Of a stretch of DNA of 64,000 bases, positions 2,587 through 64,000 are shown piece after piece (the first letter of the stretch is position 1; the number at the start of each line of letters is the position of its first letter). The position numbers were made by a program, and so were the translations under genes. Origin of the DNA: Vermamoeba vermiformis. Its lineage: Eukaryota. A model generated the notes under the pieces. It was not told the origin of the DNA and ran no database searches. It was given only the letters and a program-made list of their open reading frames with translations. The stretch is taken from NCBI GenBank assembly GCA_045837725.1, contig JBEWZL010000013.1, positions 496,001 through 560,000 on the forward strand, in the 5' to 3' direction.

Positions 2587-2593
2587 TATAAAA
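2587..2593 (+). promoter_or_regulatory. TATA box of the 154-aa gene
   Basis: TATAAAA 50 nt upstream of ATG 2637; AATAAA at 3143-3148 follows the stop. Confidence 0.5.
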
Positions 2594-2636
2594 CTCGTCA
2601 GCTTTTGAGCATCTAAATTATAAGTATATCTTTACA

Positions 2637-3101: not shown

Positions 3102-3270
3102 CTGCGCTGCATCAACTTTGTATCTTTTGTCCCCGGTTCATGAATAAAGGGTTTTGGTACTACCTGAGTGTGCGCACTTTACAAAAAACCGATGAACGAT
3201 GTTGCAGAGGCTTGACGACAATGATAAGAGTATGAAATAGTACGATTAACAACAATAATGTACAAGTGGT

Positions 3271-5493: not shown

Positions 5494-5798
5494 TTTCACC
5501 GGTGGTAGTTGTTCCGGTTCAAAAAAATTTTGTCTTGTAAACTGTTGTTGACCGCTAAACACTGAACCCACCGCCAGTCCCTATTTAACATACACACGTC
5601 GCGGAGTTGCGGCCAATATTAAACCTTGCTAAGAAAACGGATGTCGTTCTGATCTGATCCATCCGGATTAAGCTTTTGTAACCACTTTAGAGATGGAATG
5701 GAGTATTACGTGTTTATTCAATTTTTTGCAAATAAGAGCGATGGACGTACGTAATATTGATGTATTTAATGCTATAGTACAACAGAACAAGCAGCTTC

Positions 5799-8700
5799 TT
5801 AAAGCTTGACTTTAATCTTTTTCTCGCGCTCTTCCTTGGATGAAGACGTCGAATTCGAATTGATATTAACTTGCGTAGTGCCTGAACGTCTTCGACCAGA
5901 TCCGGCACCTGGCGATCCAGATGGCGAACGTCTGTCCTTGTCGTCTTCAGATTGTTCCCTAATGAGTCGTATTAGTACGAACATTATGGTGTGATATGAT
6001 GCGGGTGGAACTTACAATCGTTGGCTAGATCGTTTGGTGGTTTTGGGTGAGACTTTGATACCTTCACTGTTGCTGCGACCAGGCTTGACTTTGAAAATTG
6101 AATTGATAGGGCTCTCAGGAATAGACTTCAACAGCTTATTTAGGGACACCTCGACTCTATAGACAATAATATATGAGCTATTGTTCGATAAAACTACTAT
6201 GAGGGTAACACTTACTTCGTGAACGAGGGTCTCTTCGCTGATTTGCCGCTCCAGCAGGTCTTCATCAACTTGCCATATTCTTTCGGGCAATTATCAGGGA
6301 TCACAGGGCGATGTCCCTATAGTGATATTTAGTACTTAATCTCCGGTTTATACTAACAAAAAGTCGCATCAACTTACGCGAATGACCGCCAATGGAATTT
6401 CAAATGTGCTCTCATCTTCAAAGGGAATTCTTCGCGTCCAAAGCTCCCAAAGCACAATGCCGAATGAATATACGTCTGCCTTCTCCGTATAATGTTCTTG
6501 TTGGAAAATTTCGGGTGCGATCCACGAGACCGTGCTAGTCACATTGATTAGTAACTGACCGCTATTTATTGGCTTGAAATTTCACTTACCCGACGTTGCC
6601 GGTCATATTTCGTTCACGATCGATCAATCGCGACAATCCAAAGTCACAAACTTTCACGTTCAAATCGTTATCGACCTGTATTTGACTTAATCAGTACTCA
6701 TCGTCCTATTTAATATACTATAGTATTATACTTACCAATAAGTTGACGCTCTTCAAGTCGCGATGAATTAAATTGCACGCATGCAAATATTCCATGCCAC
6801 GGCAGACCTACACATTGCCACGTTAGTTGTTACAATACAATAGTATTATTAGCCCTACTTGTATCGCCATCTTATAGACATGGTAGGGCTCTAGCTTCAC
6901 ATCCTGCTTGCTCAACAAATTGAACAAATTGTCTTCCATTAACTCGCTCAAAATAGCGTAGTTGTCGTTCTTAGTTTGACCTCCGTAGCAACGCACCAAA
7001 TTGGGATGATTGACGAGACTAAGGTATTATAGGTTAGATCAAGTCGAATACTATATTTAGCACAGCTACTATGTACCTCATAATCGAGATTTCTCGAATA
7101 AAATCGTCGTGGTTAGGAATGCCCTTGAATTTTTTGAGCGCGCATAATTTGCCATTCCAACGGACTAATACAACGTTATTAATTAACTACCATTAAATAA
7201 CAATTGAATTCTATTAGTTACCTTTGTGGACGACTGCTTCAGTTCCTTCGCCGATCCGCTCAATAATCTCGTAGCTATTTGGAGGAATCTCACGATGCAA
7301 TTGGACCTAAAAAATTCGTATTATTAATTAATAATAAGTAGCTATAATATTGGTGCTCGTAGTTAGCCTCAGGAGTCTTAAAATCGAGGTAATGAAAATT
7401 ACTAATATTGTCTTAATTGAATGTCGTTCTTATGACGATATAATGCATACTTATGTTATATAAACCTATAAACTAATTTTTGCAAATATTTTAAGTGCGT
7501 TCTTACCGAGCCAGCAATCGCAAGCGACAGCAGGTATTGAAGCCCAGTTTTAGCCTGTGCCACAGCACTGCAAATAGTTTCTCTGGCAACTGTAAACTCC
7601 GATCTATGAAGCCATATTAATAGGTATTCATCACGTGTGCTAGTGAGTGTGGCATCCGGATTTGGATGGGCAGAAAAATTTAGGATCCTACTTACGGTGA
7701 TTCATTTAGATATCCTGCTATAGTCTGAGCAGCCATAATACGCAACTCGCCCTCTTCTTGCAACAAATCGACTAATATCGATAATTCTTCGTCGGAGTAA
7801 ATGCCGCGAGAGCCTGCATCCCGAAAAGCGGTACGTTAATTTTTGCCAAACAAGTTATTATGCGCTACGTATTTAACTTACGTAATTCACCAGTCTTAAG
7901 CATGCTAATAATTTCGTTTCTTTTTTCTGTCTTTGTCTTGGTCGTTTGTTCGAAGAGCAAGTAGTTTAACAAAGCGACGTCTTTCTCCGCAGGTATTTTT
8001 TGTGAGGGATAAAATATATTCTTATATGCCATGCTCATATGGCGAATAACTTGCCTAAAAACTGTTGTTAGTTTCAAGATCGAGATCCGCTACATTTTTC
8101 GAATTTTACCGCTTTTGCTCGTCTGTGGCTTTTGAGGCTACAAATGGCATTACTGCTACTGTTTCTATCTTAGTCTCAGGGAATAGGGCATCTTTCTGTT
8201 CGCTTTCGCTTTTAACTCGATTGTTGTGATCCCGGATGGCAAACATTAATCCTCGCATAGCGTTGTAGGCATAGTCTTGAGACATTAAATGAGGCGATCT
8301 ACTTAAACATAAAAACGCCACGTATTTGTATTTTCGAGAGACTTCTTTGACGGAGTTTCGTACGACAATAGCAGATGCGACCGGCTAAAGAGATTTTTTA
8401 AATTAAAAATGCTTTAAATAATTTAATTTATTGATCTAATCTTACCTGTTCGCCACAGTATTGATTTTGAATTACATTTAAGATCCGTTGAAGAGTTGTA
8501 CCAAGATCACTACAAATAAATACTTATCAGCAACTCACTTAAATAGATGATATAGAAAAGCAACAATTAATATTCCGACGCAATAAATAAAATATACTTG
8601 AATTTCAATTTGACTGATAATTTAGAAATTAAACAAATTTGGATGAACCAGCCAAAAGCTTACTTTGCATATTTATCTACATATTCGCCACTTCGACCAA

Positions 8701-8860
8701 AGCTAGACGTGCAAGGCAGTACTAAACAATCTACACTCCCCAATTGGTCTACCGAGTCTTTGCTGATCTGGCAGTTCGGAAAGCTTCTGAAAAATTCAGC
8801 GTACATAGGGCCAAGGGCATCATCACCCTCAGTCAATAGGACCAAAGATGTGTTTTGCAT
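5799..8860 (-). CDS. TKL-type Ser/Thr kinase with an N-terminal degenerate macrodomain-like region; multi-exon
   Basis: Kinase exons: IGEGTEAVVHK, HRDLKSVNLL, CDFGLSR, WIAPE, ADVYSFGIVLWE. Upstream exons: DCLVLPCTSSFG, YCGEQPVASAIV, YNAMRGLMFAIRDHN, IETVAVMPF, MSMAY. Intron phases are compatible across the whole span. The kinase part is confident; the fusion is inferred. Confidence 0.7.
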
Positions 8861-9219
8861 GGCTATGTGGTGCCTAATTTTAACGACAAAAAAAATGGAA
8901 AAGTAAATTTCCGTCAACAAAATTAATTTTCTATCGGCAGCGCCTTTTTCGGAAATATTAAATTTTAGTCTCAATGCCCAAGAGTGCTATTAAACAGCAT
9001 CTGGACTAGCGTGCATTCACAAGTTAAAGCGAGGTATATATTAAGTAAATTTGTACCAGAACCTTGGGAATTAATCCTCCTGATATACTCGATTGTTAAA
9101 TTTCTTAATTTGATTAGTGCTTAAAGCTCACTAACAATTATGTGCACGGTTAAGCAACTTAACGATATAAAGCAGTTTTGTAGCGGATCTAATTTTTTTC
9201 GGAACCGAAAATATTTACA

Positions 9220-12200
9220 TTACGAATCAGAGTCCTCATCGGAGACGAAGTGATCTTGTAGCTGCTTATTAATTTCTTTCATCGTCTGATTAAATGTTGG
9301 TCAAGGAAAACAACCGTTAGTAACAAAAATAAGTAAAAAATTATAAATCGTTAGGATACGGGTCGCTGTTCGGGATCTGGGTGCCAACATGAGAGCATAA
9401 TATTCTTTAGACAAAAATGCCAATCATCGAATATTTCGGGATGATAATTATCGTTCCTAACATTTTTGGTTAATCCAGATCTTAGTCGTTGCTATTAACC
9501 GATACTTACTTGATCTTCACTCCCACGTCTATATTATCCATTCCAGCGTGAGGCTCATGTCCACTCAGAATTTCGTAAACTGAATGCAAGATCGTTAACA
9601 AAACTTTCGCTGCAGCGGATCGTGCCACTTACTTAATATGCCAAATGTCCACACGTCACTCTTCGTGCTGTAGCTAGTGTCTCGAATACTTTCTGGAGCC
9701 TATGATAGATAAGTAGATGGTCATTCACTGCACTCGACTCAAAGGTGTCGCTGATCAAAATGAACTTTACCATCCACTTCAACGGACCAACAGTTGACTT
9801 TGTTTGACCTTTTTGTGACTCTTCTTTCAGCAGTCGAGACATGCCAAAGTCCTAAATGAAACGAACGTTAGCCAATCAAGTCGAACTTGTGTGTAAGTTA
9901 CACTTACAGAAATCTTCGGTTTGCCTCCACGTGTCAGCTGTAAAGACAATATTACGTTAATTACATGATCGATGTAAATTATAATGATAGTGACGTACCA
10001 ATATGTTTCGTGCAGCAAGATCACGATGAATTATGTTGTTTGTGTGAAGATGCAACAGTCCACGAGCGATGCCTTTGATCAATCGAACTTGATCTTCAGA
10101 CGAGTACGATGCGTCTCTATTGAATATCTTCTTGTCGAGACTGCCACCGCCACAGTATTCCAGCACGATGCACGGCAATGCTCCGTCAACACTGATGCCA
10201 AATGTTTGCACAACATTCGGGTGCGGAGGGAGTGCACTTATGCGAGACAAGTCAGCATTGTTCATTCATTCAGTGCGATTTGACTTACATGGTGAGTGTT
10301 GCTTCGTCAAAGAATCCGTCAATGTTTGCAATCGATGCACACACTTTGATTGCAACTTTTGCTCCTTGCCATTGTCTACGAAGAGTTAAATATTCGAACG
10401 ACATAAGACACGCAGTGATGGCACTTACCCTAAATAGACCTTGCCGTAGCTTCCTGAGCCTATTTCTTTCTTCATTTCGAGCGACGCAAATGGAATTTCC
10501 ATCTTCTGATTGATCGTATCTGGATAGCGTGAGAAGGGTCCGATAATTATAGACAATACTGAACTTACTCAGAACTTTCGTCTTTTTCTTGTGTTTGCCT
10601 TGCATGGAGTCAATTGAGGTGTAATTGGTGAGTTCTTGATTTTTCATTGCTTTTCTTCTTCGCTTGCGGCGCTTCAGTAAAACAACGAGGACTGCTATTC
10701 CTACTGCAGCAACTACTGTAGGAACAATGAAAGCTGGAAGAACGACGCTGGGGTCCCAAGGAGCCGCTCCCTCTGGAAACGAACAATCGCGCACGAAACT
10801 ACAATTGTACGCGATCACGTATCCAGCAGGGCACCAATTGCATGCACTTGCCGACCTACAACCTCATTGTTAGTAGCTGACAAACTAGCAACAATTACAT
10901 GTGGTGCGTACAAACAGGTCTCGCAACTTGTGAACGGCGAGCAATCGAATGACTGGAGTTCAATGGGGTCAACAAGTGTCTGGTTCTGGAACTTGATGGT
11001 CATTATTACAGGATCGGCAGTGATCAACTTTGGCAAGTCACACGTCAGCGTTGTTTCGTTGGTGATAATTGCAGGAATTGAGTCACCAGTAGATAAGTAG
11101 CAATTAAGACCATCGATTGTGACCGCAGTTCGCTTTGCCGAGTACCATACTTGTGGCACTCGAGGTGACACTGTGATTGTTGCTGTCGTGTCAAACTTTG
11201 AATCGAAGGTACTGGGACTGACGGATATCTCCAAGCATTCCTCCAACAGTACTTGCGAGGGTGCACAGAACGCTTGTGTTGAGCACGTGCTCGATGCAAC
11301 ACACCAGCCACAGTGTTCTTGTTCAGTACATTGTGACGAGCACGAAGACGAGCCATTGGTGTTCTGACAGCCTAAAACTCATCAGCATCAGTTGAGTGTT
11401 GTCAAATGATCGATCAAACATACCGGAGACATCAATGTCAATTGCATTCGTGTAAGATTGACCATACGCTGTGATCGAAAGTGTCGTGTCATCACTGAGA
11501 TACAGTGGAGCAGTGCAGTCAATGGTGCTCGAATTGATGAACAACGCTGTTCCTGTCAAGTCATCAAAAAGACAAGCATGCTCAACGTCATCATAGAACG
11601 GTCCTCCAGTCACTCTGATTACTTGTTGTGCATCGCTATTCGCTCGAATGAACGATGGAGTGATTGAAGTGATTGTCGGACACACATTCAGTTCGTGACT
11701 TGCGCCATCACAGCTTGTCGCACAATGAGTGATGCACCATCGACAGCTCTGTGAGGCACTCAAACATTCGCCACATGAGCTAGTGATGTTCGCACAATCT
11801 GACGAGGCATTAGCGAACTAGTCAACGGTTGTTGCAGCAGTACTCACCAAACCAAGAGAATGGAAGTGAGTTGGTCCATGGCTCTGTGTTGCCAAGTGCT
11901 GTCAAGTGCACGCTACCGATGACGGGACGAGATACAGTTGGTGATAAACATTGCACGCTGTTCGTTGTGACAAGTGATGCAAGTATCACATCAGAGGAGG
12001 TTCCGTCGTGAGTCCAAACACAACTCACATTGCTTGGATCATCGAGCACACTTGCATTCAATGACCCATTCAATGCGATTGTTATTCCTCCCGTCAGTGG
12101 TGAGCTGTTTGGCATCGCTGAGTTTATCGCTAATGCACTCATGTTAGTTCGTGAGTGATGACAAGTCAAACACGTACTTGGACAAGATGACAACGATGTG

Positions 12201-13944
12201 AGCTTTGTTGATGAGCACGATGATGACGAGTGGTCACATGAAGCTGTGCTGGTGCAATAGACGCATTCAGGACGTGTGCCATCGAGACATGTTGTGCATG
12301 ACTTGGTCTCACAATCTGACGAGCACTACGTTAGCCCTCAGCGTTCAACGATATTGAAACACTCACCGTAGATGTTGAAATCGAAGTTGGGTACCACTCG
12401 TGCAAAACTACCCGCCACTGAGTTGTACAACCAAAGAGATATTGAATGTGCACCAACACTCAAACTCTTTGGAATGTCACATGTGAGTGATGATGCATTC
12501 TGATAGATGCCTTCTGAGCTCGTGCTCATCGAGTCACCAACTGAGTCGAAGGCACAAACAAATGATTGGCCGTTGAACTGTGCAAAACTGACTCCTGAGA
12601 CTGAACGCGTGATTGGTGTTAGATCCTCGTCAAATCACTCATTCAAAGTACGTACCAGTCATGGTTTGACCTGATTGCACTGTTGAGATGAACACTGTTG
12701 CTGGTGATACTGATGTGATCGATGTGCAAGTGCCTGTTGTGGCACAGCTGACATTGCTGTAACGACACGATTGAGAATCGAAACAGAATGCACACGCACC
12801 ATTCGTACGAGCACTATTGCATGACTCGCAGTCTTGTCCATACGTATCGCAATCTAATCATCATTATCAATGTAAGCAAAGAGTACTGCATTCAGTGAAT
12901 GGCATTACCAAATAAGGAAATCGATGATGATTTCGAAGCGAACTGAACAGAAGAGTCCACTGTGATGACGAGATCTGCCACCACTTCTCTGTTTGTTCCA
13001 CGAGTTGAGGTCCAATCGTTGTTTGTCACCATTGGAGGTGCGCAAGTGAGTGAGTGAGATGAGATCACTGTTGCGAGTGTTGCACTGTTCGTGATTGATG
13101 TGCCGTAACTGCATTCGTAACTCATCGTTTGAGGAATGGAAGTGTCAAATGTCACTGTCAAGTTCATGCCTTGTGTTGCGATTAGCTCTTGCATCAGATA
13201 ACTTTGATCGACTTACCACCATTAATGGAAGCTGTATTTGGTGATATGGAAGTTATTGTTGGACATTTTGAGACAAATCCACTCGAGCACGATGTCAGTG
13301 ATGCGCATTGCATTGTTGGAATGCAAATACCGCACAACGGCAACGAAAGACAATCGGTGCATGGAGCTGCGCTGGATAAAGCGGAACAACCTTCGCAATA
13401 ACGTGTTATTTAATGATCGCGATATTCTTTTAATAGTAATTTCTTTGTACTTACTGTAAAAGGTGAAAGTGAGGGTCGTGTTCGACCATTGTTCGTTGTT
13501 CGCCAAAACTTTGAAACTTGTCTTGCCAATAGAGAATGACGGAGCTGTGCACGTGATCGTTCTTGCATTGACGATCACTGCATTGACGAGTGATGCTCCA
13601 AATTGACAAGTGATTCCATTTGTGAGCACTTGGCCCTGTGCATCCACGAATAAACCATTCGCTGTCACTGCAAAACCTCCATCGTTCGGTCCTGCACTCG
13701 GAAATATACTTGATAACTCTAAATTGAAATATATCTGAATTAATAATAATTCAAAAATATCAAAAAATAAACCGAATCTGGGATCCCAAAAGTAACGTAA
13801 TTTTACCTGGAATAACTGCGCCATTTACGCCAAAACTTATCCAATTTTTTATTGCAGCAATAGCCTGAAGACAAAAATTAGCAAAATGGATCGAGCAGTT
13901 GCCGCGCTTACCAAGGCGATCAGGATCCAACGCCAAGTTCCCAT
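9220..13944 (-). CDS. Receptor tyrosine-kinase-like protein with signal peptide, repeated IPT/TIG + PSI modules, TM and kinase; multi-exon
   Basis: MGTWRWILIAL signal exon; IPT motif FPSAGPNDGGFAVTANG; several CxxC...CxWC/CVYC PSI exons; TM; HRDLAARN; GPLKWMAPE; stop at 9220. Confidence 0.9.
9286..9359 (-). other. U12-type GT-AG intron
   Basis: Minus-strand donor GTATCCTAA; branch TTTTCCTTGAC ending 14 nt before the 3' splice site; joins EQRP|TMKEINKQL. Confidence 0.85.
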
Positions 13945-14255
13945 TGAACGCTATGGCAGACAGTGCCTTGGCTAGTGTATTCTATTCGCTGTAAAAAGGC
14001 AACAATTCCAAAACAATCTCTCTCGTGTCTCCAATGTCATGTGTCAGTTGTGATACCAATTATCTCGTAGGATCTGATTCTCGATCACTTTAGTAATTAC
14101 CTTCCACAAAAAGGCAATAACTAACCTCAATCCTCCATACTAACCACTTGCGAGCAAAGATTTGGCCCTCTCTCAAAGTTAATTTGCTATTTACTGTTTA
14201 CAAGTTCTTCTCGTGCAATGGGCCTGTTCAAGTTCAGATCCGGTGAATACTGGTG

Positions 14256-17200
14256 CTAATCTGAGTGCTCGTCATCCGTGAAGTATTGCTGCAACTTTTT
14301 CGCGATCTCCTGCATTGTCTACGAGAGCGTTAAGGAAACAAGGGCGATGAGAAAGAGTGATAAAAATCGATTTAAAAGGTAATTGAAAAGTAAGAAAGAA
14401 TATAGGATACGGGACGTTGATCCGGATCTGGGTGCCAACACGAGAGCATAATAGACTTCAAATGATCGTTCCATTTGTCTGGTATTTCAGGATGATAATA
14501 CTCGTTCCTAATTCAATTAGTACCACTGTTTTTTTCATAATTACAATACACGTACTTGATTTTCATTGCTACATCGATCACGTCCATCTTCGTGTGAGGC
14601 TCATTCTCGCTCAGAATTTCGTACACTAAATACGGAGTCAATTTACAACGGACATCGAGACGGTAGCCTTACTCAATATGCCAAATGTCCACACATCACT
14701 CTTCGTGCTGTAAGTCATGTCAACAATACTTTCCGGAGCCTACAATTGCCAAATTAGAACTTTACATTGAATGTTCCGAGCTTACCATCCATCGTAGCGG
14801 ACCAACAGTTGACTTTGTTTGACCTTTTTGTGACTCTTCTTTGAGCAATCGAGACATACCAAAGTCCTAAACGAAACGAACGTTAGCCAATCAAATAGAA
14901 CTCGTGTCCAAGTTTGCACTCACAGATATCTTTGGTTTGCCTCCACGTGTCAGCTGTAAAACACAATATTACGTTAAGAACATGATCGATGTAAGTATCA
15001 TGATATGTACGTACCAATATGTTTCGTGCAGCAAGATCACGATGAATTATGTTGTTTGTGTGAAGATGCAACAGTCCACGAGCGATGCCTTTGATTAGTC
15101 CAACCTTGCCTTCAAAAGTAAATGCGTTTGATTCATCGAACAGTTTCTTGTCGAGACTGCCACCGCCACAGTATTCCAGCACAATGCATGGCAATGCTCC
15201 GTCAACACTGATGCCAAATGTTTGCACAACATTCGGGTGCGGAGGCAAACCACTTTAACGATTTTAGACAAGCATAGCAATTGAAGGTACGTACATTGTT
15301 AGCACTGCTTCGTCAAAGAATCCATCAACATTGGCTACCGAAGCACATACTTTGATCGCGACCTTTGCGCCTTGCCAGGTCCTTCAGTCAACATTAGCTT
15401 ACTGCTGCTATGACGAGCGCAAAACATACCCTAGATAGACTTTTCCGTAACTTCCAGCGCCTATCTCGCGCTTCCGTTCAAGGGATTCATACGGAATTTT
15501 CATCTTTGCGTTAATAGACGATACAATAAAAGTTAATTTTTTGAACACGGAATTCCTTTTATATTGTTTTACCTATACCGCTCGAGCTCTTCTTATCAAA
15601 AGGAATAGATTTATAGTGAGTGTTGCTACTCGGTTTGTTTGCAAGCTGTTGAACGCTTGAAGAAGAAGATTCGGGTTCGGGTGCTTGTGCAGCAAGGTTG
15701 CCTTGGGTACTTTGTGGTTTCGTGTCCGCCTTTTGTCGGCGCTTGTCTTCAAGGCGATGGTCTTCTTCGGCTTCATCCCTTTTACTTTGCTTTGCCTGCC
15801 TTTTCTTTTCTGCCAGTCGCTCTTTTTCCTCCTTTCGTCTATTCTTTTTCGCTTGATATTTAGTTGCCTCGATTTTTCTCAACTCTTCGTTATTTTGCAG
15901 TTTCTTTCGTTTGTGGCGCTGAAGCAGCACAACCAAAAGTACAGCTCCTGCAGCCAGAACAACGGTCGGAATCAGTACTGCCGGAATAACTATTTGCGCT
16001 AAAGTAGTACACTCTTGCTTTTGTGAGCAGCGATGACTAATGACGCATGAATCACCACACCAGACACATTGACTTGGTCTACAATAGATCGTCAACGAAA
16101 GAAAATAATTGATCCTGAACTTACACGCATTGATCGCAGGTGTTGTACGCAGCACAGTAGAATGTCTCGAGTGTCGTTGGAGCGATCAGAGTGCTGTTTA
16201 GATACTTCACCGTCAAGGTAACCGGTTGATTGGTACTGCTCAATTTCGGCAAGTCACACGTCAAGGTCCAATTACTCGTTACGACTGCAACTATTGAATC
16301 TCCCGTAGACAGCTCACAGTACACGTCGTTTGTTGACAGCGCCGCCCTCTTTGTCGAGTACAATAACTCGGGCAAACTAGGAGCTACGGATATTGTGACA
16401 GTTTCGTCAAAGGATGGATCGAAGATGCTTGGACTAAGAGAAATTTCCAAACATTCGTCCAAGAATATCGCTTTATGAGAACAAATTACTTGGGCAGAAC
16501 ATCTTCCCGACGCAACGCACCAACCACAGTGCTTTTGTTGGTGACACTCCGAAGAACACATGGTAGTGTTCGTGTGGCACTCTGAAGGGTATTAGCATAT
16601 TATTATTACAAAACTGTAACGTACCAAATACTTCGACATCGATTGAATTCGTGTACGGCTGACCAAACGCCATAATTGTCAACTTGGCGTTTTTCAGCAA
16701 GAAGACAGGCACGTCACAATAGACCACGCTGTCGTTGAAAAATGTTGCCTGAGCCGGAATGTCGTCAAACATGCAAACATAAGTAACGTCATTGTAGAAG
16801 TAGCCCCCGTATGCCATGATCGTTTGTTGAGCGTCACTATTAGCAAGGACGTATGACGGAGTTATTGACATGATAGCAGGGCATACGGATAACTGATAAG
16901 GACTTGTGTCACATGATCTCGCACAATGTGTCACACACCACGTGCACCACCTTGGCGTCGATGCACTGATGCACTCGTTACACGAGCCAGTAATGTTTTC
17001 GCAAGCTGAAAGGGTGTTAACAATGACTTATTGACGTAATAATAACTTGCCTATCCAAGAGAATGGCAAAGCGTTGGTCCAAGGCTCCGCACTGCCTAAC
17101 ACTGACAAATGTAACTCGCCTTTTGTTGGATTTGCTACAGCGGGAGAAGTACATCGCACCTCATTTTTCGACGAAGAAGATGCATAGACGACAGCTGATT

Positions 17201-24108: not shown

Positions 24109-26116
24109 ATGCACACGTCAGCAATGTATTACTTATCATCTCTGATATTTGTCCTGTTAGCTTTGCTGTCGAATCATATCCACAATGCAGTCGCTGTGCA
24201 GATCGTGCCTCAACCAGTCAACGTGCAATCTGGATCTTTCCAGCTTCAATTAAATCCAGAACAATTTCAGATCCACTCGAACTCTGATTCAGGAATATTG
24301 AATCGTGCCATTCAACGAGCCCAGCAACAATCACTTTTCCCGTTTAAAGCGTCAGATGGCCGTCAATACCAAGTGAAAATATCTGTAAAATCCAGCAACG
24401 AGGATTTGTACTTAGGAGTTGATGAATCATACACTTTATCCTTGCAAATTGGTCAAGGTAATTTTTTTGGATATTTATTCTGTAATTAATAATTATTTCG
24501 GCTTGGTATTAATTAGTATTGCACATTTAGGTACCATTGATGCAAATACCATTTGGGGAGCAATGTGGGGTCTTGAGACGCTTTCTCAAACAATTACATA
24601 TAATGGTTCATATTGGTTTACTGAATTGCCGATCTCTATTTCGGACAGACCCCGATATCCTTGGCGGTAAATACGTTCATATCATAAATTAAATGTCCAA
24701 ATACTAATTCTATACTGCGAAGCGGTCTTTTGATCGATACATCGCGACATTTTTTGGAGGTTGATGCAATTTACAGACAGATCGACGCGTTGAGCCATAC
24801 AAAGGTACGACTAATGTTATTAATGCTCAATATGAAGTGTTAATATAGCGGTCATGATAGATGAACGTCCTCCATTGGCACGCTGTCGATGCTCAATCCT
24901 TCCCAATTCAGTCAAAGACAAACCCTTCATTAACACTTGGTGCTTATGCTCCTGATGCAATCTACGAGTACGTGCATATCACCACTTCCTTTTAATAGTA
25001 CTCTATGTTAATATGTTTCGAATAGTCACGAGACAATTCGCTCGATTGTTCGTTACGCCAAAGACCGCGGAGTGCGTGTGGTGGCTGAATTTGACACACC
25101 GGGCCACGCAGCCAGTTGGGGTGTAGGCGATCCCTCTTTGACAGTCACATGTCCTAGATACTCAGCAAATGTCAACAACATCCCGTTGAACCCTGCACAC
25201 GAGCACACATTTAACGTAGTGCAAAGTCTGTTTGGTGAAATGGTTGGACTGTTCCCCGATCAATTTTTCCATATTGGCGGTGATGAAGTCGTGTTCGGAT
25301 GCTGGTACAACAACACGGATGTGGTTAATTGGATGCAGCGAATGGGATTCACCAATGGCGTGCAAGTCGAAGGGTACTTCATCGATCGCATTCAAAAGTT
25401 CTTGGAGAGCTTGAATAGAACTACAATCGTGTGGGAAGATCTCTTTGACGAGGGCGTGACCTTGGATTCCTCCACAATCATTCACGTATGGAAAGATCAA
25501 GGCGTTTTGAATCAAGTATGTTACGCGTACTATTTCCTTAACAGTTCCAATCTTAATTACCTTTTAAGGCTATTTCACAAGGTTACAAAGGACTGATCTC
25601 CGCTGGCTGGTACCTCGGTGTCCAAGTCCCTAAAGAAGGCACAATTCACGGCCTGTATTATGACACGTGGCAAGACTTTTATCAAAACGACCCACTTAAT
25701 GGTGTCACTGCTCCAAAGCATAAGCAAGATCTTATTCTTGGAGGCGAGGCCGCGTATGTATTCTCGAATCTGTTACTCGTTTCACTTTGCTAACAAGTCT
25801 TAGAATGTGGGGCGAACAATGCGATAGCGAGACTTTGGATCAACAAGTCTGGCCAAGAACTGCCGCTACTGGTACGATGAATACTTACTAATATGTAATT
25901 AAATATATCTTGACGTATCATGTGTAGGCGAACGCCTCTGGAGTCCTCAAAGCGTGACAGATCTGGTCAGCGCAAAAATTAGACTGAATTCATTCAGCTG
26001 CCACTTGAAGTAAGTACTAACCTAACTTTTATTACCGATACTAATAGTACTACAGGCAACGAGGAATCAAATCAACCCCGTTGATGCCTGATTATTGCCG
26101 CTTGCCTAAGAAATAA
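24109..26116 (+). CDS. Lysosomal beta-N-acetylhexosaminidase (GH20)
   Basis: Signal peptide; DESYTL; PRYPWRGLLIDTSRHF; MNVLHWH; EFDTPGH; catalytic HIGGDEV; GGEAAMWGE; ERLWS. Confidence 0.95.
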
Positions 26117-28193: not shown

Positions 28194-29767
28194 TGATATT
28201 GTCAGACTTTTGGAGTTGTTCTTTTCTGGGCCGGATTCTTTCGGAACATGCAACACGAAGGTGTTTCTTTGCTTTTTGGCATTCTGTAAATTCACAAACA
28301 CATTATCACCACGCCGCTTAACAATATAGTATAAACGTAATGTGCTGTAATACTTTATACAATACTGTTGGCGCTCGTGGACTCAAATCTGTTCTAACAC
28401 GATAAATTCTAATTGCTTTACATCTGTAGCTTAGTTGGTTTATTTTTCATTTTTAAATACTATTTTTCTACCGCGTGAGGCTTCGAAGTGGAATAGAAAC
28501 TCATGATACCAGCTGCTTTAACTTGAGGCAGTTCTCATTCTCTCCCATTAATTAGGAGCAAATCTTATAGTAAAGGATTACGTACCGTTAATTAGTACTA
28601 TCAACAATCAAAACCAGACGTGCGTTGAATAGATGAGGCGTCACTGACGCCCATCGATGTGTTTAGGCCTTTTTCATGTTCGCTCGCGGTTCTAACTTAC
28701 CTTAGTCGAATACAATGGCGATATTACTCGCGGAAGAGCGGCATTCCCGTAGCTATTACGGTCGCACGGACGGATGAGAGCATCTCAAACCAAAAAACAG
28801 CAAAAAAATTTAATTCATTAGCCCAAGCAGTCACAAATGCAGTTTATGTTATTACACAACGTGGATAATCAATTGCTGATTTTTTGGAATTTTTAGTAGC
28901 GGATTAAGCGTGAAGATCTTGCAAAAGCGTTAATTTTTTTACATACAGCAGAGATACACTGGCGCTTCAGCGAACACAGAGCTAATACGGGGCAATATTT
29001 TTATAAGGGAAGGAGCTATTTGAGATCGCAATTCGATCATATGCGAGACTACCAAGTAACCGCTACCACATCTGAACCCTTCGATCTTATTATTCAGCCT
29101 CATGCGTCTACACCCTCAAAATCAGCCCTCGCTCGTGCGTAACGGGAATAGGCATTGAAAATTTTCTACCAGCGCTAGTCCCACAAACAAAATCGCTCTC
29201 AGTTGCCATAAAAAAACAATTTCAGCGCTCTGTTCTTTCATCCACTTCGAGGCCAAACGCAGAGCGAATTTGAAAATCGCCTTTTACTATTTTCAACCGT
29301 GCGTCTGGTCTGACAACGAAGGTTGTCAAATTTTTGCGGATCCACTTCGTGTGGATTCCTTCCAAAACTATAAAATAATAAAACGGGGTTTGGGGTTGGT
29401 TATGGGTTGGGATAAGGATGATAAGGGTTGAACTTACCGTTATTCTTTCGGGAAAAGATCTGATCGGCGTAAACTTAAAGATCTTTCCCTTTAAAATTGC
29501 ACATTCAGTGCATCCAGTGCGTTTGCTTGGTAGCACCGAATCTTAACGATTAATTTGCACAATATTCCGCCTAGTTACAAGTTTCGTCGAGTTGGGTTGT
29601 GCGAGAATTTCACCCAAAATCACGCCGTGTTGTTTTTGTCCCTTTGCTGTGTTTCTATGATTAACTTTTGCTAAGCATGTAACGCACAACAAGACCGTGC
29701 ATTATTTTTGTATTTTTGTAAATAGCTTGTAATATAGTTACTGTGTTATACCTGTATTTATTGCGCC

Positions 29768-35300: not shown

Positions 35301-37170
35301 TAGTGTTATTCTTATTGTGTTACAGATCTTTGGACAACAATCAACTTATCGGAACCGTGCCTGACAGTTTTAACGAATTGGCGAATTTGAAGACTTTGTA
35401 CGTATTTTTATTACGATAGTTAATTTTGTCTAATGAATTGTACAGGACCTTGCAAAATAATGACTTGAGTGGCACTGTGCCAAACTCTTTGGATTCGTTA
35501 CGTAATCTTCGGCGGATGTAAGTCAGGTTGAATTTAAAATTATAATTATTCGCTAACGTTAGAGAACAGGAATATTGCAAACAATAACTTGCTCGGATAT
35601 TTTTCTCCTACAATGCCGCTGATTGAGTGTGACCTTGCCGGCAATAACTTTTGTTGCGGAGAAGGTATCGCTAGTGCTTGTTCTTTATCGCTGCCCTGTA
35701 CGTCAATCTCGAAAAAATGGTTCGTAATCATCGTATTGATTTTCAATAATTAGGTTCGCTAGAAAGAAAACAAGTGATGCAGAATGAAACAATCGATGCA
35801 ACTTTGCAATATCAATGTACGTATAAGGCAAGTTGTAGGTCATATGACACTGACGCCTATTATAGATTTCGACGTTGCCGAGGGCGTAACATTGGTCTTG
35901 GGCTTGAGTGCCTCGATCACAACTCAGTGCCTTAACATCAGAGGAAATATCGTAGCAACTGTTCCTGCTACTGGCGCGGTCACGAACGACCTCTTAGTCA
36001 CGCCATTAACATTCTCGTTCTCGTATCAATCGCTCACGAATCAAACTGTCACTGTTTATGAAACGGAAAAGTGCCGCGATTATTCGGCGGATTTGACGGC
36101 GTTTCCTCCGACTGAAATCTCCCAGGGCCGTATCAACTTGCTGATTACAAGTTCAGATATACTTAATTGCTCCGATCTCGACCAATCGACAGTATTTATT
36201 CTGGCGTTTGTTCTTGGTCTCGGTTTGCCACTCGTAATTGCACTAGTCGTAGTGGTTATCTTATGGCGCAAAGGAAGATTACGACGAAATGTCCGCACTA
36301 AAATATCAACGGAAATCTTGGCGACACTGGCAGACAAGTCATTCTTAACGCCAATCTCATCAATCAAGTTCGAGCGGGAACTTGGATCCGGCAGTTTCGG
36401 TAAAGTTTTCATCGGAAGATGGCGCCAGACAACAGTCGCATTGAAGGTGTGCAATGTACCCAGCAAGATGGAAGACTTTTTGCAAGAAGCAGCGCTAATG
36501 ATGAAGTTGACGCCGCACCCCAATGTCGTACAACTGTTGGCTATCAGCATTGACGGACCTGAGCCCGTCATCGTGCTCGAATACTGCGAAGAAGGATCAC
36601 TGGACACGCTCTTATTCGACACTAATGCATCATTAACGGACGACATGAAGATCAAATTTGCTTCTGGCATTGCTCGTGGCATGCTACACTTGCACACGAA
36701 CAATTTGGTACATCGGGATCTGGCTGCTCGAAACGTATTGTTACAACGAGGTGTGCCAAAAGTATCGGACTTTGGCATGTCGAGATTACTTCAAACAGAA
36801 GTGGCAACAAAGACTTACTCGAACATTGGACCGATCCGTTGGATGGCACCTGAGTCCCTCAAAAACCGTACTTATAGCACAAAAAGCGTAAGTTTAGTAT
36901 TAATTTCATTATATTTTCCCTAATGTGTCTGCGTAGGACGTTTGGATGTTCGGTATAGTGCTCACCGAGATTGCATCTCAATCTGAGCCTCATGTTGACA
37001 AAGACCCCTTGGACATTGGTGCGCAGATCAGAGACAAGGGCGTCAGACCACAAGTACCCGACCTCATGCCTCCATTGCTGAAGGGTTTGATTGACATGTG
37101 CTTGCAATATGATCCAAACGACAGGCCGGATTTTGATGCTATTTGTCAGTATATTGATTCCCATAAATAG
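32363..37170 (+). CDS. LRR receptor tyrosine-kinase-like protein with 23 single-LRR exons; apparent +1 frameshift in the first LRR exon
   Basis: Inferred first exon ATG|gtacgt; signal peptide; LxxNxLxGxIP repeats; TM FILAFVLGLGLPLVIALVVVVILW; GSGSFG, HRDLAARN and GPIRWMAPE. Confidence 0.9.
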
Positions 37171-55743: not shown

Positions 55744-58693
55744 CTAGTGCGTTCGAATAAAGTTGGCAATCTCTTCCATAGTCTATAGAAAAGGGCGGTT
55801 AGATCAGCATCTGACCAAAAAAAAACTTCGGCGTGTACTTACAGGTCGTTCAGCAGGGTCCATCTTCCAACACTTCCTCATTACTTTACGTAGCGTTGGA
55901 TCGCAGTTCTCAGGTATCGCCGGGTGATACGCTTCATCACGAATTCTAACAGCGACGTACAACTGATCTTCGTCTTCGTGCGGCTCTTTGCCTGCCACTA
56001 ACTCCCAGACTAACACATGAAACCGTTAGAATAATACATAATACTAATATAGCCGTCGAGTATATAACTGATTTTCAAGCTGAGATAAAGTGCTGAATTT
56101 TCAACAGACTGACACGTGTCAGAACTACCTGGTTCGCATGATTCTTACCTAAAATGCCGTACGACCACACATCCGATTTGACACTGTATGTTTTGTCTCG
56201 CAAGCTTTCAGGGGCCTTTAGAGGGATAAGTTATTATAATGCGTTGTAAGCGCATGTTTACACGTACCATCCATCGCAAGGGACCAACATTCGTCTTTGT
56301 TTTGCCTTTTGCATCTTCGTCTTGAATGACACGTGACATGCCAAAGTCTGACACTTTTGGCTGACCATCTTCTGATAGCTATAAAAGAGATGAGAAAAGA
56401 TCACTAAACGTGAAGAATGTGGCTGATATTCGTACCAAGATATTTCTCACGGCCAAGTCACGATGCACAATGTTATTATTGTGAAGATGGATCAGTCCAT
56501 ATGCAATCTTCAACGCAATTTCCTTGCGCTTGGCATCAGTGACAGTGCTGGCATTGCTGAAGACCAGCTTATCAAGACTTCCACCACCGCAGAACTCGAG
56601 CACAATGCACGGGTAAGATCCGTCAAGACTGACTCCATATGTTCGTACGAGGTTCGGGTGCGGCGTAATGCCAAGTGTCAATTTGGCTTCAGCAATAAAT
56701 CCATCAACATCAGTGACTGTATTGTTCACTTTGATAGCTGCTTGTGCTCCTTGCCACTCGCTGAAAACGAGTACGTTAGAATGCTTTTTAAACTAGCAGA
56801 TGTCTGATAATGACACGTGTCATCAAAACATGACACCGGACACTGGTATTAAATCAGGTCAGAGTGTCTGTACGTAATAGGTTATCGAGGTATAGCACGT
56901 GGTGAATCACGTGATTAGTTACAAAGTCAAATTTAACGAGACTCGTGTCAAAAAGTTACTTTGGATGTCATACAGTGACACTTACCCCAAGAATACTTTG
57001 CCGTAGCTGCCAGCACCAATCTCCTTCAAGAAGACAAGACTCTTGTACGGAATGTGCATTCTGGCTTCAATCTCGTTGGGTTTGATGCCGTTGGGATCAA
57101 TCCTCTGCACTGCGTTGTTTTCTTGTTCGTTCGGCATATTTCGATACACTCTGCCGTCACCTCCTGTCGAAGGAACATCGGCGTAAGCAGTTGGCGTGAG
57201 TTGTGCCATGGGCTGTTTATCATCGCTATCGTCTTTCTTGCTGTCACCCTTGTTCTTTTTGCGCTTGTTCACGAAGAACACGATGAGGAAGATCGAGACG
57301 CCCATCGCCGCGCAGACGGGCACGACAATCGCAGGGACGATCACTTCGATTTTAGGTCCTGGAGGGGTCGCTGTAATATCGGAGGTGTTCTGGGCCACGG
57401 GAGCTACCGGATCTGCGACAGGAGGGCTGATAGGTGCGTCGACGGGTGGTGCAACTGGCACGAGAACAGCTATTGTGACACAGATTTAATTTTTTGTTTC
57501 TTGAATCACGTGCAACTGAATTTTGCTATTTTTGACTTACTGCAGTTATAACCATCGCCTTCATACCCCGGGAGACAGGTGCAGTTCGCGGTGTTTAATC
57601 CAATCGGAGTACACTGCGCATTGACGGAACAACCTCCGTTCCCGAGTTGGCATACTAAATATGGCGTTGTCAAAAAAGAAAAAGATTCTAATACTGTCCG
57701 GACTTACGGTTCAGTGAAGTAACGTCCCACGAATAGACGCGAAGTTGCGCAACGTCGCCTCCCGTGGATGCAGTGAAACCAAAATAATATTCGCTGTTGA
57801 CAATTGGAGTTGTTCTTGAAGGCATTATAAAGTTAACAGTAGTGACGGCAGCATTGTCCAATGAGATCTGAAATAAATAATTAAATAAATAAAGAATTAA
57901 ATTATTATTTTTACCGTCCAGTTCCAATTTGAGCTGCCCGGGATCGGATAGGCTTTTATTGCAACATTGTGGAAGCCAAGGTCCACTTTAAAAGCGCTCT
58001 TTAGCTTACAATATGAGGAATCCCAAAAACCACCGCCTGCTGGTCGTTGTGGGAATGAATCATTGGTGGATCTAAAATGTCAGTAATGTTATTTTTAGCT
58101 TCAATTACGAGTTACGAAAGTTTAACTAGACATACGTTTGACACAAAAGCAAAGTATTAGTGTCCATATCCATAACTACTGCAGCGAAGTTGGTCAAGCC
58201 AGTTAACATCATACTTCCTCCCGTGTCTGCTGGAACACTCAGAAAGGTGGTGGGATCCAAGCCAGTAAAAATAAATACGATTCTAAAATAGTCAAGTTAG
58301 TGGCAATTGGATAAGAATAGTTTTTTATTTAAAACGGATTTAGATGCGATTTTTAAATTTTTGGGTCATTATTTTGGTTGATTTATCAGGCTTATATTAG
58401 CACGAATATTCTTACCCGTCACCGTAAGGGAGGATAGTAGCGTTGACAGATATATAATAATTTGCTTGAAATCCGACAGGTATGTCGAGCGTTGAATTGT
58501 ATAAGGCTCTTGCACCAGCACCACCAGCATCTATTGGGGTCAGTTGCATAAAAGAACTCGGTTCGATCCACGCGCTGCCTGTCAAAAAGTAGGCATCCGT
58601 TATCACAGTTTCGTCAATATTGCCAGTCACCAAAGAGGCCAGCGCTCCTAAGATTACCACCAAATAGGTGATAATGAGTTGTGGCGACTTCAT
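55744..58693 (-). CDS. Receptor tyrosine-kinase-like protein: L-type lectin, EGF, Pro-rich stalk, TM, kinase (copy A)
   Basis: Signal peptide; lectin motifs QLTP and YYFGFTASTGG; EGF exon NGGCSVNAQC...CTCLPGYEGDGYNC; TM; HRDLAVRN; GPLRWMAPE. Confidence 0.88.
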
Positions 58694-58901
58694 GGCATCA
58701 AAAAATTAAAATTAATGCCAACAAAATAGAATGTCGGGAGTAAATGGAGGGAGGTTTGTTTTTTTTTCCCCGATTCCGAGATCCATTTTGAGTCGTGTAA
58801 GGTTCTACAATAATCATATTTTAAAGTTAATATGTTGTGCGACTATTCGTTTTAATGTACATAATGATTTAATAAATAGTTCAAGTTCGCTTTGGCTTTT
58901 T

Positions 58902-61706
58902 TTAGTGTTTGCGCAAGTACTTCGCGACTTCCTCCATCGTCTAGACAATTGAAATATCATTATTCATACTTCCGAAAGAACATGTTAAACTTACCGGTCG
59001 ATCAGCGGGATCTTTCTTCCAGCACATTTCCATCACCTCTCGAAGAACTGGATCGCAGTTGTCGGGAATTGGCGGGTGGAATGCTTCATCCCTAATCTTC
59101 ACTCCAACGAACAGTTGGTCTTCATCAGCATGTGGTTCTTTGCCCGCAACAATCTCCCAAACTGATACAAGAGTGTCAGATCTGTTGACTTTGGTCGTGT
59201 GACACGTGTAGTTCTTACCTAAAATGCCATAAGACCACACATCCGATTTGACACTGTATGACTTGTCTTTCAAGCTCTCGGGGGACTAAAGTCATATGAT
59301 AAGTATGAGTACGAATAGTTATTCTAGCACGCCGTACCATCCATCGCAAAGGACCAACATTCGTCTTCGTTTTGCCTTTGGCTTCTTCATCTTGAATGAC
59401 ACGTGACATGCCAAAGTCTGATATCTTTGGCTGACCTTCTGTGCTCAGCTATTTGATATCTTAAGTGAGTATACTACGTTTGGATCGATTCACCGTTGCC
59501 TTACCAAAATGTTTCGTGCAGCCAAGTCACGATGCACGATGTTATTGTTGTGAAGGTGGATCAGTCCATATGCAATCTTCAGTGCGAACTCTTTTCGTTT
59601 GGCATCGGTTACCGTGCTGGCATTGCTGAATACAAGCTTATCGAGACTTCCACCACCGCAAAACTCAAGCACAATGCACGGATATGCACCATCGAGACTG
59701 ACTCCGAATGTTTGGACCAAGTTCGGATGAGGAGCAATGCCAAGTGTCAGTTTTGCTTCAGCAAGGAATCCTTCCATGTCAGTCACCGTGTTGTTCACTT
59801 TGATTGCGACTTCTGCTCCTCGCCATTCACTGAAAATCGAACGTTAGATCAATTGCGATCCAGGTAAGAAGCACTTTCATACCCCAAGAATACTTTGCCG
59901 TAACTTCCAGCACCAATTTCTTTTGTGAAAACAAGACTCTTGTAAGGGATGTGCATTCGTTTGTCGACTTCAGCGGGGTTAATGCCCGTAGGATTAATCT
60001 CGGACACCGCTCCCACATCGGAGCTATTGCTATTAGTATCACTTTCACTGTTAGGAATACTGTTGTATTGACCACTCGCTCTGTTCCTTGCTGGAACTGT
60101 CGCGTAATTTGATGGCGCAATTCCTGTAGCATTCGAGGCTGACCGCGTGCCCGTCGCGTTTGAAGCTGACGTCATCGCCACAGCACCATCGCCGTCCTCA
60201 ACATCGTCACTTGACTTGTGCTCTTTCTTCTTGGCTTGTGCTTTCTTCCCAAAGTAGATGCCAAAGAAGAGCGCTGCTGCAACTCCGACAACAGGAATGA
60301 CGATCGCTGGAACGAGCACTTCAGGACCAGGTGCTTTGGGAGCGTTGACGATGGCGTTAGTTGGTGGGTCAACTGGAGGTGCAACGGGCACGTCAACTGG
60401 TGGATTGATAGGTGTGTCTACGGGAGGGTCAACTGGTGCCACTGGAACTGGCGGAATAACGGCTACGAGAGTTAGTGTCATCCATTTAACTACAGACAAG
60501 CATTAGTTTTACTTACTGCACGTGACTCCATCGCCCTCAAAACCAGCGAGACAGGTGCAATTAACTTGACCGCCGCCAAGGTACGAGCACGTGGCATTTG
60601 CGGAGCAGCCTCCGTTGTTCGTGATGCAAGCTAAAATTCGAAACATTAACCAGCGTTCCACACGTGAATTAGTTAATACAATTGCACTGATTGACGTATG
60701 ATTTGACATGTAGTATCAAGTTACGTACGCTCGGTGATAGTAGCGATCCAGCCAGTGAGATTTCTTTCAGAGTAAACGCCGCCAGTTGATGCGGCAAATC
60801 CAAAATAGTACTCATTTGGCGTGACTGGATCGATGGGTAAAGGGCCTGGATTGAACGTAACGTCTGGCTCGCTGTCGATGTTAACCTGATTGAACCATTG
60901 TTATTTTGCCAAAGTCAAACGCGAATGAGATAGCGTTGCAACGTACCGTCCATGTCGCGTTGTTGCCATTAGGATCGTAGATGATATTCAAGGTATGATT
61001 GCCTACATTCGGGACCGTGTATTGTTGGAAAGTACATTCATTAGTAGCCAAATACATCTGCGGCAGTGTAGCGGTATTGTTACTAAAATAATAGCGATAT
61101 TATCAATAAAGATGTAAACGTGCGTGTTTCAAGACTTACATTTGGCAAAAATAAACTCGATTGAATATCATATTCAGAGTTATTGCGGCCATGTTGGATA
61201 AGAACGCGATGTTATAATCACCGCCGTTCGTTTGTTGAGCGTTTAAAAATGAGTTCTTATCGCCAGTGAGTACGAGACTAAGCCTGTCAGGGTTGATTCA
61301 TTTAGCAAAACCAGTTCCGTAACGGTAAAATATTATTTTAATTAATAACAATAATAATAATAACTGAATTGAAGTCTATTCAAAGAAAAATAGCCAATAT
61401 TTACTTATATTTAGATTGTCTTTGTCAAACTTACGCTTCTCCGTAACCGTTTACTCCAGATCCTGACACTTCGTAGTGGATCGTTATCGAGAAACCTAGC
61501 GCAACATCGTGTGGAATATTGTATAGAACTCGCGACATTTTGGCTGAGGCATCAGGAGTCAGTTGAATTTGGTCCGATCCCTGAACAAAGTCACCAATTC
61601 CAGTGTAATTTAACGAAAGTGATGTCTCATCGATAACGAGACAGTTGGCGGTAGATATTAGTCCTATCACCAAGACGGTGAGAAGGAACTGTGGCAGTCT
61701 TTTCAT
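58902..61706 (-). CDS. Lectin-EGF receptor tyrosine-kinase-like protein (copy B)
   Basis: IQLTPD; YYFGFAASTGG; NGGCSANATC...CLAGFEGDGVTC; TM; HRDLAARN; GPLRWMSPE. Confidence 0.9.
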
Positions 61707-62281
61707 CAGCGCTTTGAATAAATAAATGAATTAAATTTCCGTTTTTTTGGTAGGATCCCAGGCGTTGTCGCACAAAGACCGAGTAAAGACTGAAAGTTAA
61801 ACAACCAATACTCAATGATGCGAATTAATTATATGGCTTTAATTTATCAAGTTTTGATTGGCGAAGTCAGTGAATCAATGCCAGATCTCGACTGTCGCGC
61901 TAACTCGCTTCTATTATGGAAGTGACAAAGTATACTTGTATATAGGTGCTAGGGTTGATTTAGTTCAAAAAGGTTGAGTAATAAAATAAGTTCCCTTGAC
62001 ACCGAATCAATCGAGATTAACGTCCTGACTTTTGCCAAATGCGGAATCAATTAAATTAATATTAAATTAAATGAATTGCTGTCCCTCGTAGTAGCACTCT
62101 TCAACGATAATATCATCGCGATTAAATAACCGGCATCAAATTTAAAATAAAGCGACCCGGAAAGTGAATGCAATATTATTATAAAATCGATGTATTATTG
62201 TACGTTATTAATATACATTATAAATAATTGTTGTATTACGTAAACTCTTACGCGAGGTGGGCCAATTTGAATTCAAGTTTT

Positions 62282-64000
62282 CTAGTTCTTGCGCAGGTAC
62301 TTGGCGATCTCCTCCATCGTCTGAATGAGTGAGATTTTAATGTATGGGGCTTGCAATTATTAATTTGTGCAACATACCGGTCTATCAGCGGGGTCTCTCT
62401 TCCAGCACATTTCCATCACTTCTCGAAGAACTGGATCGCAGTTGTCAGGGATCGCAGGATGGAATGCTTCATCTCGAATCTTCACTCCAACGAACAGTTG
62501 GTCTTCATCAGCATGTGGTTCTTTGCCCGCAACAATCTCCCAAACTGATACAAGAGTGTCAGAGCTGTTGACTTTGATCGTGTGACACGTGTTGTTCTTA
62601 CCTAAAATGCCATAAGACCACACATCTGATTTGACACTGTATGACTTGTCTTTCAAGCTCTCGGGGGACTACGGTTAAATGGTAAGTATGAGTACGAATA
62701 GTTATTCTAGCACGCCGTACCATCCATCGCAAGGGACCAACATTCGTCTTCGTCTTTCCTCTTGCTTCTTCGTCTTGAATGATGCGAGACATGCCAAAGT
62801 CGGACACTTTTGGCTGACCTTCTGTGCTAAGCTATATATTAAGGTTAGTAAGATCGATCAGGTTTTATGCTAACGTACCAAAATGTTTCGTGCAGCCAAA
62901 TCACGATGCACGATGTTATTATTGTGGAGGTGGATCAGTCCATATGCAATCTTCAATGCAAACTCTTTCCTTTTAGCGTCTGTGACGGCGCTCGCATTGT
63001 CAAAGACAAGTTTATCAAGACTTCCACCACCGCAAAACTCGAGCACAATGCACGGATATGCACCGTCGAGACTGACACCGAATGTTTGGACCAAGTTCGG
63101 ATGAGGAGCAATGCCAAGTGTCAGTTTTGCTTCAGCAAGGAATCCTTCCATGTCAGTCACTGTGTTGTTCACTTTGATTGCGACTTCTGCTCCTCGCCAT
63201 TCACTGAAAATCGAGGGTTAAAAATGACGATAAATCAGGGCGGTTAGATCGTGCTTACCCCAAGAATACTTTGCCGTAGCTTCCAGCACCAATCTCTTTT
63301 GTGAAAACAAGACTCTTGTAAGGGATGTGCATTCGCTTATCAATCTCCGACGGGTTGATTCCAGTTGGATTGATCTCCGATGCTCCAATGTCAGAGGTCT
63401 CAGTGCCACCTTCAGGAATGCTGTTGTATTGGCCACTCGCTCGACTCATTGCCGGGACGGTCGCGTACGCTGACGGTGCAATGCCTGTAGCGCTAGAAGT
63501 CGTTGTCATCGCAACGGCATCATCGCCGTCCTCAACATCGTCACTTGACTTGTGTTCTTTCTTCTTGGCTTGTGCTTTCTTGCCAAAGTAGATGCCAAAA
63601 AAGAGCGCTGCTGCAACTCCGACAACAGGGATGACAATCGCTGGAACGAGCACTTCAGGACCTGGTGATTTGGGAGCGTTGACAATGGCGTCAGTTGGTG
63701 GGTCTACTGGAGGTGCAACGGGCGCGTCTACTGGTGGATTGATCGGTGTGTCTACGGGAGGGTCAATGGGGGCGTTGATTGGAGAATTGACCGGTGGAGC
63801 TATGGGCGCAGTAGGAGGGATAGCAGCTATTTACGAATATCATTAATACTTATTTACCCACCTACTTGTTAATGCATTCGTTTTACTTACTGCACGTGAC
63901 TCCATCGCCCTCAAAACCAGCGAGGCAGGTGCAATTAACTTGACCGCCGCCAAGGTACGTGCAACTCGCGTCTGCGGAGCAGCCTCCGTTGTTCGTTACA
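62282..64000 (-). CDS. EGF receptor tyrosine-kinase-like protein (copy C); 5' end lies outside the window
   Basis: EGF exon, VDPP stalk, TM and kinase are nearly identical to copy B. Any lectin exons would lie beyond 64000. Confidence 0.9.

Follow-up and report, generated by a model that had tools for sequence, protein, structure and literature searches.

In a 64,000-nucleotide (nt) stretch of the genome of the amoeba Vermamoeba vermiformis, a single intron position within a family of receptor kinases is found in three states: with the splicing signals of the minor (U12-type) spliceosome, with those of the major (U2-type) spliceosome, and with no intron at all. The stretch (positions 496,001 to 560,000 of contig JBEWZL010000013.1, GenBank assembly GCA_045837725.1, forward strand; hereafter the window) carries three kinases preceded by IPT/TIG exons (IPT1-3), three lectin kinases (LecA-C) and one LRR receptor kinase, and the intron in question lies in phase 0 immediately after the Arg-Pro (RP) codons of kinase subdomain XI. 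Because the U12-type, U2-type and absent states occur at one homologous position, a class switch at one inherited intron position is the best reading. We take conversion from U12-type to U2-type as the best explanation of its direction, with modest confidence.

To set the splice sites, all GT..AG pairs that keep the reading frame were listed for the gaps between open segments, and the spliced models were translated. All six IPT and lectin kinase domains are open and colinear after splicing. The window is eukaryotic in character, with about 40% G+C and short introns of about 45-140 nt. The last introns of the lectin kinases, all on the minus strand, are at 55842-55783 in LecA (60 nt, GTAAGT...TATAG, with a CTAAC branch), 58994-58941 in LecB (54 nt, GTAAGT...TCTAG) and 62377-62321 in LecC (57 nt, GTATGT...TTCAG). 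Each is in phase 0, directly 3' of the RP codons, at column 254 of the kinase alignment. The last exon encodes a conserved stretch of 12 residues starting with TMEE, and the unspliced frames run past RP into tails that bear no mutual resemblance. The three introns are of the U2 type, with G at +5, YAG acceptors (TAG, TAG and CAG) and neither a U12 donor nor a U12 branch motif; none of the eight TCCTTRAC matches in the window lies within them. The first-pass annotation of this DNA had described three phase-0 introns between RP and TMEE, with GTAAGT or GTATGT donors and without a TCCTTRAC branch; the coordinates and donors are confirmed by the spliced models, and the lack of the branch by a motif scan of the window.

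The IPT kinases carry signals of the other class at the same site. The last intron of IPT1 (2234-2308, plus strand, 75 nt) begins with the donor GTATCCTT and has a degenerate branch, CCCTTAAT (6 of 8 positions), 14 nt before the AG. The last introns of IPT2 (9286-9359, minus strand, 74 nt) and IPT3 (14319-14410, minus strand, 92 nt) share the donor GTATCCTA and have exact branch motifs, TTCCTTGAC at 15 nt and TTCCTTAAC at 11 nt before the AG, respectively. All three distances are counted from the TTRA of the branch. Minor-intron signals have been defined, in the portion of preprint 10.1101/2020.10.12.336362 that deals with them, as a [G/A]TATCCTT donor together with a TTCCTT[G/A]AC branch near the 3' splice site, and both are found in the last introns of IPT1-3. 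The first seven donor bases, GTATCCT, are invariant in all three. Among 55 mapped kinase-domain introns, C at +5/+6 (GTATCC) is confined to these three at column 254; in the remaining 52, position +5 is G (50) or A (2), and C at +5/+6 does not occur. Since the three introns have diverged from one another except in the 7-base donor and the branch motif, the U12 signals look conserved by selection. By their sequence signals, the last introns of IPT1-3 are classed as U12-type introns of the GT-AG subtype. They would be removed by the minor spliceosome, GTATCCT pairing with U11 and U6atac, and TCCTTRAC, at 11-15 nt from the AG, pairing with U12. The lectin-kinase introns, whose donors are GTAAGT or GTATGT and whose branch resembles CTAAC, would be removed by the major spliceosome.

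The homology of these positions was assessed by placing the 55 kinase-domain introns of ten DNA-verified genes (seven from the window plus L004, L006a and L006b from related metagenome contigs) on one alignment, where they fall on nine positions. Column 254, phase 0, is occupied in eight of the ten genes, namely IPT1-3, LecA-C and L006a/b, and the flanking residues, CW..P..RP before the intron and xM.E/D.. after it, align without gaps. All five lectin-kinase positions match five of the eight IPT positions in both column and phase: column 29 (phase 2), column 138 (after NIL, phase 0), column 175 (after WM, phase 0), column 197 (phase 1) and column 254 (after RP, phase 0). By our arithmetic, the chance that five random introns would fall on eight set sites among some 790 nucleotide positions is near 1e-11. 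The LRR kinase reads straight through its RP codons (37123-37128, plus strand) and has a single kinase-domain intron, 36888-36936, at a position that it alone occupies (column 189). The sites after NIL and WM had been noted as shared in the first-pass annotation, which also reported that the LRR kinase has no intron after RP and inferred that U12, U2 and absent states of one intron lie within 64 kilobases (kb); each of these was recovered. The RP-site positions thus share column, phase, an ungapped conserved stretch and four further positions in common, and no tree that we obtained shows separate gains of the intron, so that the intron class conversion first proposed from this DNA is supported. 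Common descent of the RP-site intron is probable on this alignment.

Related loci and proteins extend the distribution of the intron beyond the window. Thirty metagenome loci were scanned; L002/L003 and L004/L005 are the same contig sequences from two public collections and were counted once. Kinase RP sites were found 15 times (13 distinct sequences), and an intron is present only in the two tandem genes of L006, where both copies are U2-type with GTACGT and GTAAGT donors. These two receptor-kinase genes (L006:245-1599 and L006:3298-4473, on one contig, kinase domains 86% identical) have IPT positions 2, 3, 5 and 8 and are without positions 1, 4, 6 and 7, a pattern that points to mosaic intron loss across the receptor-kinase family. 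L004, the sister of the IPT genes, keeps IPT positions 1-7 and has no RP-site intron; L002 and L003, which resemble orthologues of the LRR kinase, also have none. L001, 69% identical to IPT3, is on a contig that stops short of the RP site. Among 92 database proteins, the 63 that matched the RP-site motif were inspected, and P0011 was noticed by eye among the 29 that did not. A valine follows RP in seven inspected proteins and implies an unspliced GT at the site. The tails VR (P0003, P0010 and P0011), VST (P0062) and VSE (P0070) are incompatible with GTATCCT; the tail VSF (P0039 and P0068) is ambiguous, as GTATCC and GTAAGT cannot be separated at the protein level. Since introns or read-through tails occur across the family, the RP-site intron position appears to be old and widespread in it and, wherever its class can be told, mostly U2-type. 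Vermamoeba vermiformis transcripts (EukProt) are the closest named relatives of the kinases in the IPT and L004 clades, with Cavostelium more distant, and the lectin and LRR kinases have near-identical relatives on contigs from JGI.

Splicing of the RP-site introns is indicated indirectly by proteins encoded on the relatives' intron-less contigs and by transcriptome proteins, which pass from RP directly into the T/SME peptide of the last exon, as in P0001 and P0004-P0009 of the lectin clade and in the Vermamoeba transcript P0022 of the IPT clade. RNA sequencing reads from three runs, mapped to window positions 1-16000, numbered 4, 6 and 7, all 95-99% alike, and none fell on a kinase intron.

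The first-pass annotation had called for a kinase phylogeny with the intron classes mapped onto it. Two such trees were built: a careful tree of 31 kinase domains, and a quick tree of 80 rows, the long-branched row L009 being left out. To be admitted, a database protein had to cover at least 215 domain residues and reach residue 250 or, in one set, to cover more than 180 residues. In the 31-domain tree, L004 groups with the IPT kinases (support 99/96), and this group is joined successively by the lectin clade (91/86), an LRR-type clade (81/82) and L006; the 80-row tree gives the same order, with values of 97, 98 and 89 in the Shimodaira-Hasegawa-like approximate likelihood ratio test (SH-aLRT). 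An alternative topology, in which the 63 other ingroup rows were forced into one clade and IPT+L004 placed beside the outgroup, was not rejected by the approximately unbiased (AU) test (p-AU 0.571). The log-likelihood of this constrained tree is 4.55 above that of the free quick tree. The free search was therefore not optimal, and because the constrained tree scored higher we do not lean on the nested topology. The outgroup rows come from intron-less contigs and are uninformative on the ancestral state of the intron.

If IPT+L004 branches beside the outgroup, a single U12-to-U2 conversion is enough. In the best explanation, the phase-0 intron after RP is one inherited position of a large amoebozoan receptor-kinase family. 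Most likely, point changes at +4 to +6 of the donor turned a U12-type intron into a U2-type one on the branch or branches ancestral to the U2-bearing genes, and the LRR kinase lost the intron by deletion. Between GTATGT, the donor of LecC, and GTATCC, only +5 and +6 differ. According to PMC2831892, conversion normally runs from U12 to U2, does so more often in the GT-AG subtype, and may need no more than a change from C to G at +5; Larue and Roy treat conversion as unidirectional (PMC10639083). Several observations weigh against this direction. Both free trees place the U12-bearing IPT clade inside U2-bearing clades, and on them a U12-type ancestor costs three or more conversions and a U2-type ancestor one change. 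In other clades, the tails VR (3), VST (1) and VSE (1), taken from gene calls on genomic contigs, are incompatible with a GTATCCT donor after RP, and further U12-type introns were absent from the scans of the window and of the 30 metagenome loci. An ancestral intron about which nothing else is specified is, moreover, far likelier to have been U2-type. With the prior for U12-to-U2 conversion set against parsimony and the low prior of a U12-type ancestor, the minor-to-major direction still seems to us the best explanation, by a modest degree of confidence.

The foremost alternative, which we regard as unlikely though not negligible, is that the ancestral intron was U2-type and, in a single event on the IPT stem, took on a U12 donor and branch, passing thereafter to the minor spliceosome. 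Parsimony on the free trees favours this history, at one change against three or more, and U2-type or non-U12 donors are indeed found in the lectin clade (LecA-C, P0003 and P0010), the L006 pair, an LRR-related clade (P0011 and P0070) and a Kelch-type clade (P0062). The sequence distance to be covered is short at the branch site, where the CTAAC consensus is few changes from TCCTTAAC; GTATGT donors occur, and an intron of the window's GH20 gene already pairs such a donor with a perfect TTTCCTTAAC. A single natural precedent, from Diptera, is described in PMC2831892, in the part concerned with such switches. However, U12 signals hold far more information than U2 signals, and gains of U12-type introns outside Physarum are very rare according to the pertinent sections of PMC2831892 and PMC10639083. 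The early-branching placement of IPT+L004 was unrejected at p-AU 0.571 and belongs to the likelier tree, and the VSF tails of P0039 and P0068 could conceal more U12 donors in a distant clade.

A history in which the two introns are unrelated, the original having been lost in the ancestor of IPT and L004 and a U12-type intron later inserted at the same codon boundary on the IPT stem, is improbable. It finds some support in the L004 sister clade (transcripts P0024-P0028), which is without the RP-site intron and keeps the other seven IPT positions, and its event count on the free trees is as low as that of a U2-to-U12 change. It requires, however, that a rare U12-type gain hit the exact nucleotide and phase of the lost intron; transposon-like terminal repeats of the Physarum type, as characterized in the relevant part of preprint 10.1101/2020.10.12.336362, are not evident in the IPT introns, and descent accounts for every other shared position in the family. 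Taking both histories together, it is possible, although we think it doubtful, that the U12 state is the derived one, a U2-type intron on the IPT stem or an empty site left by loss having become a classical U12-type intron. If so, going by the literature searched here, this would be only the second natural major-to-minor switch on record, the dipteran one being the first, and no earlier one with canonical signals would be known from a protist.

Slightly more improbable still is the absence of any functional difference in class, the IPT introns being U12-like only and spliced by the major machinery after the organism had lost the minor one: as paralogous copies, the three count as a single origin, and no further U12-type intron was found in the 64 kb or the 30 loci scanned, but a 7-base donor and a branch at canonical distance are kept in three otherwise diverged introns, C at +5/+6 is found in 0 of 52 other introns, and minor splicing is known from several Amoebozoa (PMC10639083).

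The whole window was scanned for [AG]TATC[CT]T with a branch-like motif 3' of it, and eight donor-like sites were listed. Only two of the eight, those of IPT2 and IPT3, have a branch motif within 100 nt; the remaining six are ATATCTT strings lying 201-509 nt from the nearest branch motif. Two ATATCCTT matches (24655 and 31216) were rejected as donors, one being GH20 coding sequence and the other lying 3' of a stop codon. No pairs of TATCCT and TCCTTRA at a spacing of 25-86 nt were found in the 30 metagenome loci. A U12 system of the Physarum type was also rejected, the branch sites here being classical and not TTTGA. The GH20 hexosaminidase intron mentioned above (25517-25569, plus strand) has a GTATGT donor and its U12-like branch about 30 nt before the AG; this branch in a U2-type intron is left over from a minor intron that was converted, or is due to chance. 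The sole Rfam family in the window is a U5 spliceosomal small nuclear RNA gene at 29244-29358 (plus strand; RF00020, 68.9 bits, full length).

Burge and colleagues (1998, as cited in PMC2831892) reportedly proposed conversion of U12-type to U2-type introns between homologous genes. Class conversion at homologous positions, paralogues included, is an established phenomenon, to which the present case adds an example and not a new principle. Intron class conversion between homologues has been published in PMC2831892 and PMC10639083, and the cases treated in the conversion-related parts of these papers resemble ours in having, at one position and phase, U12-type introns in certain homologues and U2-type introns in the rest. 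They also resemble it in that the U12-type copies are of the GT-AG subtype, the one reported to convert most often, and in that intron loss in other homologues occurs alongside. Unlike those cases, which as described there concern animal or plant orthologues, the three states here are found in tandem amoebozoan paralogues within one 64-kb stretch; here the free trees nest the U12-type copies, and the ancestral state is not established. The dipteran dURP twintron, as outlined in a part of PMC2831892, involved the activation of cryptic U12 sites, and would be the precedent if the IPT introns derive from a U2-type intron; unlike in dURP, a second, U2-type pair of splice sites was not identified around the IPT introns, which show no sign of a twintron. 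Among the matches listed in a literature search for U2-to-U12 switches, PMC2831892 was the only relevant one.

Two amoebozoans offer closer comparisons. Physarum polycephalum, in the account given in portions of preprint 10.1101/2020.10.12.336362, likewise has U12-type introns common to paralogues; its thousands of such introns have a TTTGA branch, GTATCYTT donors and transposon-like ends, whereas the window has classical TTCCTTRAC branches and one paralogous U12-type set only. In Pelomyxa schiedti, ancestral minor introns are now major introns at the same positions, as the preferred reading would have it here, but the pattern set out in the corresponding section of PMC10639083 is massive, genome-wide and at the level of orthologues; in our case a single genome has paralogues of both classes.

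A literature search for Vermamoeba together with U12 found no report, and the IPT introns would indicate minor-type introns in a tubulinean-like amoeba, a group for which we found none reported. Class conversion is thought to be an additional route by which minor introns disappear, usually assumed to be one-way, and a possible major-to-minor switch is what could raise the value of this case. With U12-type, U2-type and deleted versions of one intron adjacent in one genome, in a large family with many sampled relatives, both versions of the intron could be compared for splicing efficiency within one cell.

The genes that carry these introns are arranged as follows. A tblastn search with one spliced kinase domain matched about 1-2374 (plus strand), 9220-10517 and 14256-15518 (both minus), 36351-37149 (plus), and 55843-57071, 58995-59968 and 62378-63344 (all minus). 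Weak kinase-like matches at 6221-6807 (minus strand), 25-27% identical to the kinase of IPT1 with E near 1e-11, represent a further, divergent kinase or a remnant. The IPT1 gene occupies 1-2374 on the plus strand, its 5' part lying before the start of the window and its kinase part beginning at 1082; the kinase parts of IPT2 (9220-10517) and IPT3 (14256-15518), both on the minus strand, have IPT/TIG exons upstream, to about 13824 and 17525, respectively. Pfam TIG matches are at 11326-11817, 13225-13824 and 16476-17027, in the upstream exons of the IPT kinases. The kinase exons of IPT1 (1082-2374) and IPT2 (9220-10517) are identical at the protein level to about residue 180 and divergent thereafter, and the last introns and last exons of the two genes are dissimilar. 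Partial gene conversion between these tandem copies is suggested.

The LecA gene (55744-58693, minus strand) encodes a legume-lectin-like ectodomain, an EGF domain, a transmembrane segment and the kinase; LecB is at 58902-61706 and LecC at 62282-64000, both on the minus strand, the 5' part of LecC lying past the end of the window. Searched alone, the lectin exons of the window gave no Pfam match. P0001, whose kinase is 78% identical to that of LecA, has Lectin_legB (28.6 bits, cut-off 26.3), EGF_3 and kinase matches, and the first exon of LecA aligns to its lectin part with 42% identity over 72 residues (E 7e-14). By way of this close relative, the Lec genes are assigned as legume-lectin receptor kinases. 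At 32.4-37.2 kb lies the gene of the LRR receptor kinase, whose near-identical relative P0067 has LRR_1, LRR_8 and LRR_4 matches.

Copies of the palindrome CACGTG number 31 in the window, a count reached in none of 100 shuffles, where 12.6 would be expected; 13 copies lie in the lectin-kinase cluster (56111-63898), several of them within introns. The 10-mer GACACGTGTC is present twice, at 56111 and 56812, each time in an intron of LecA.

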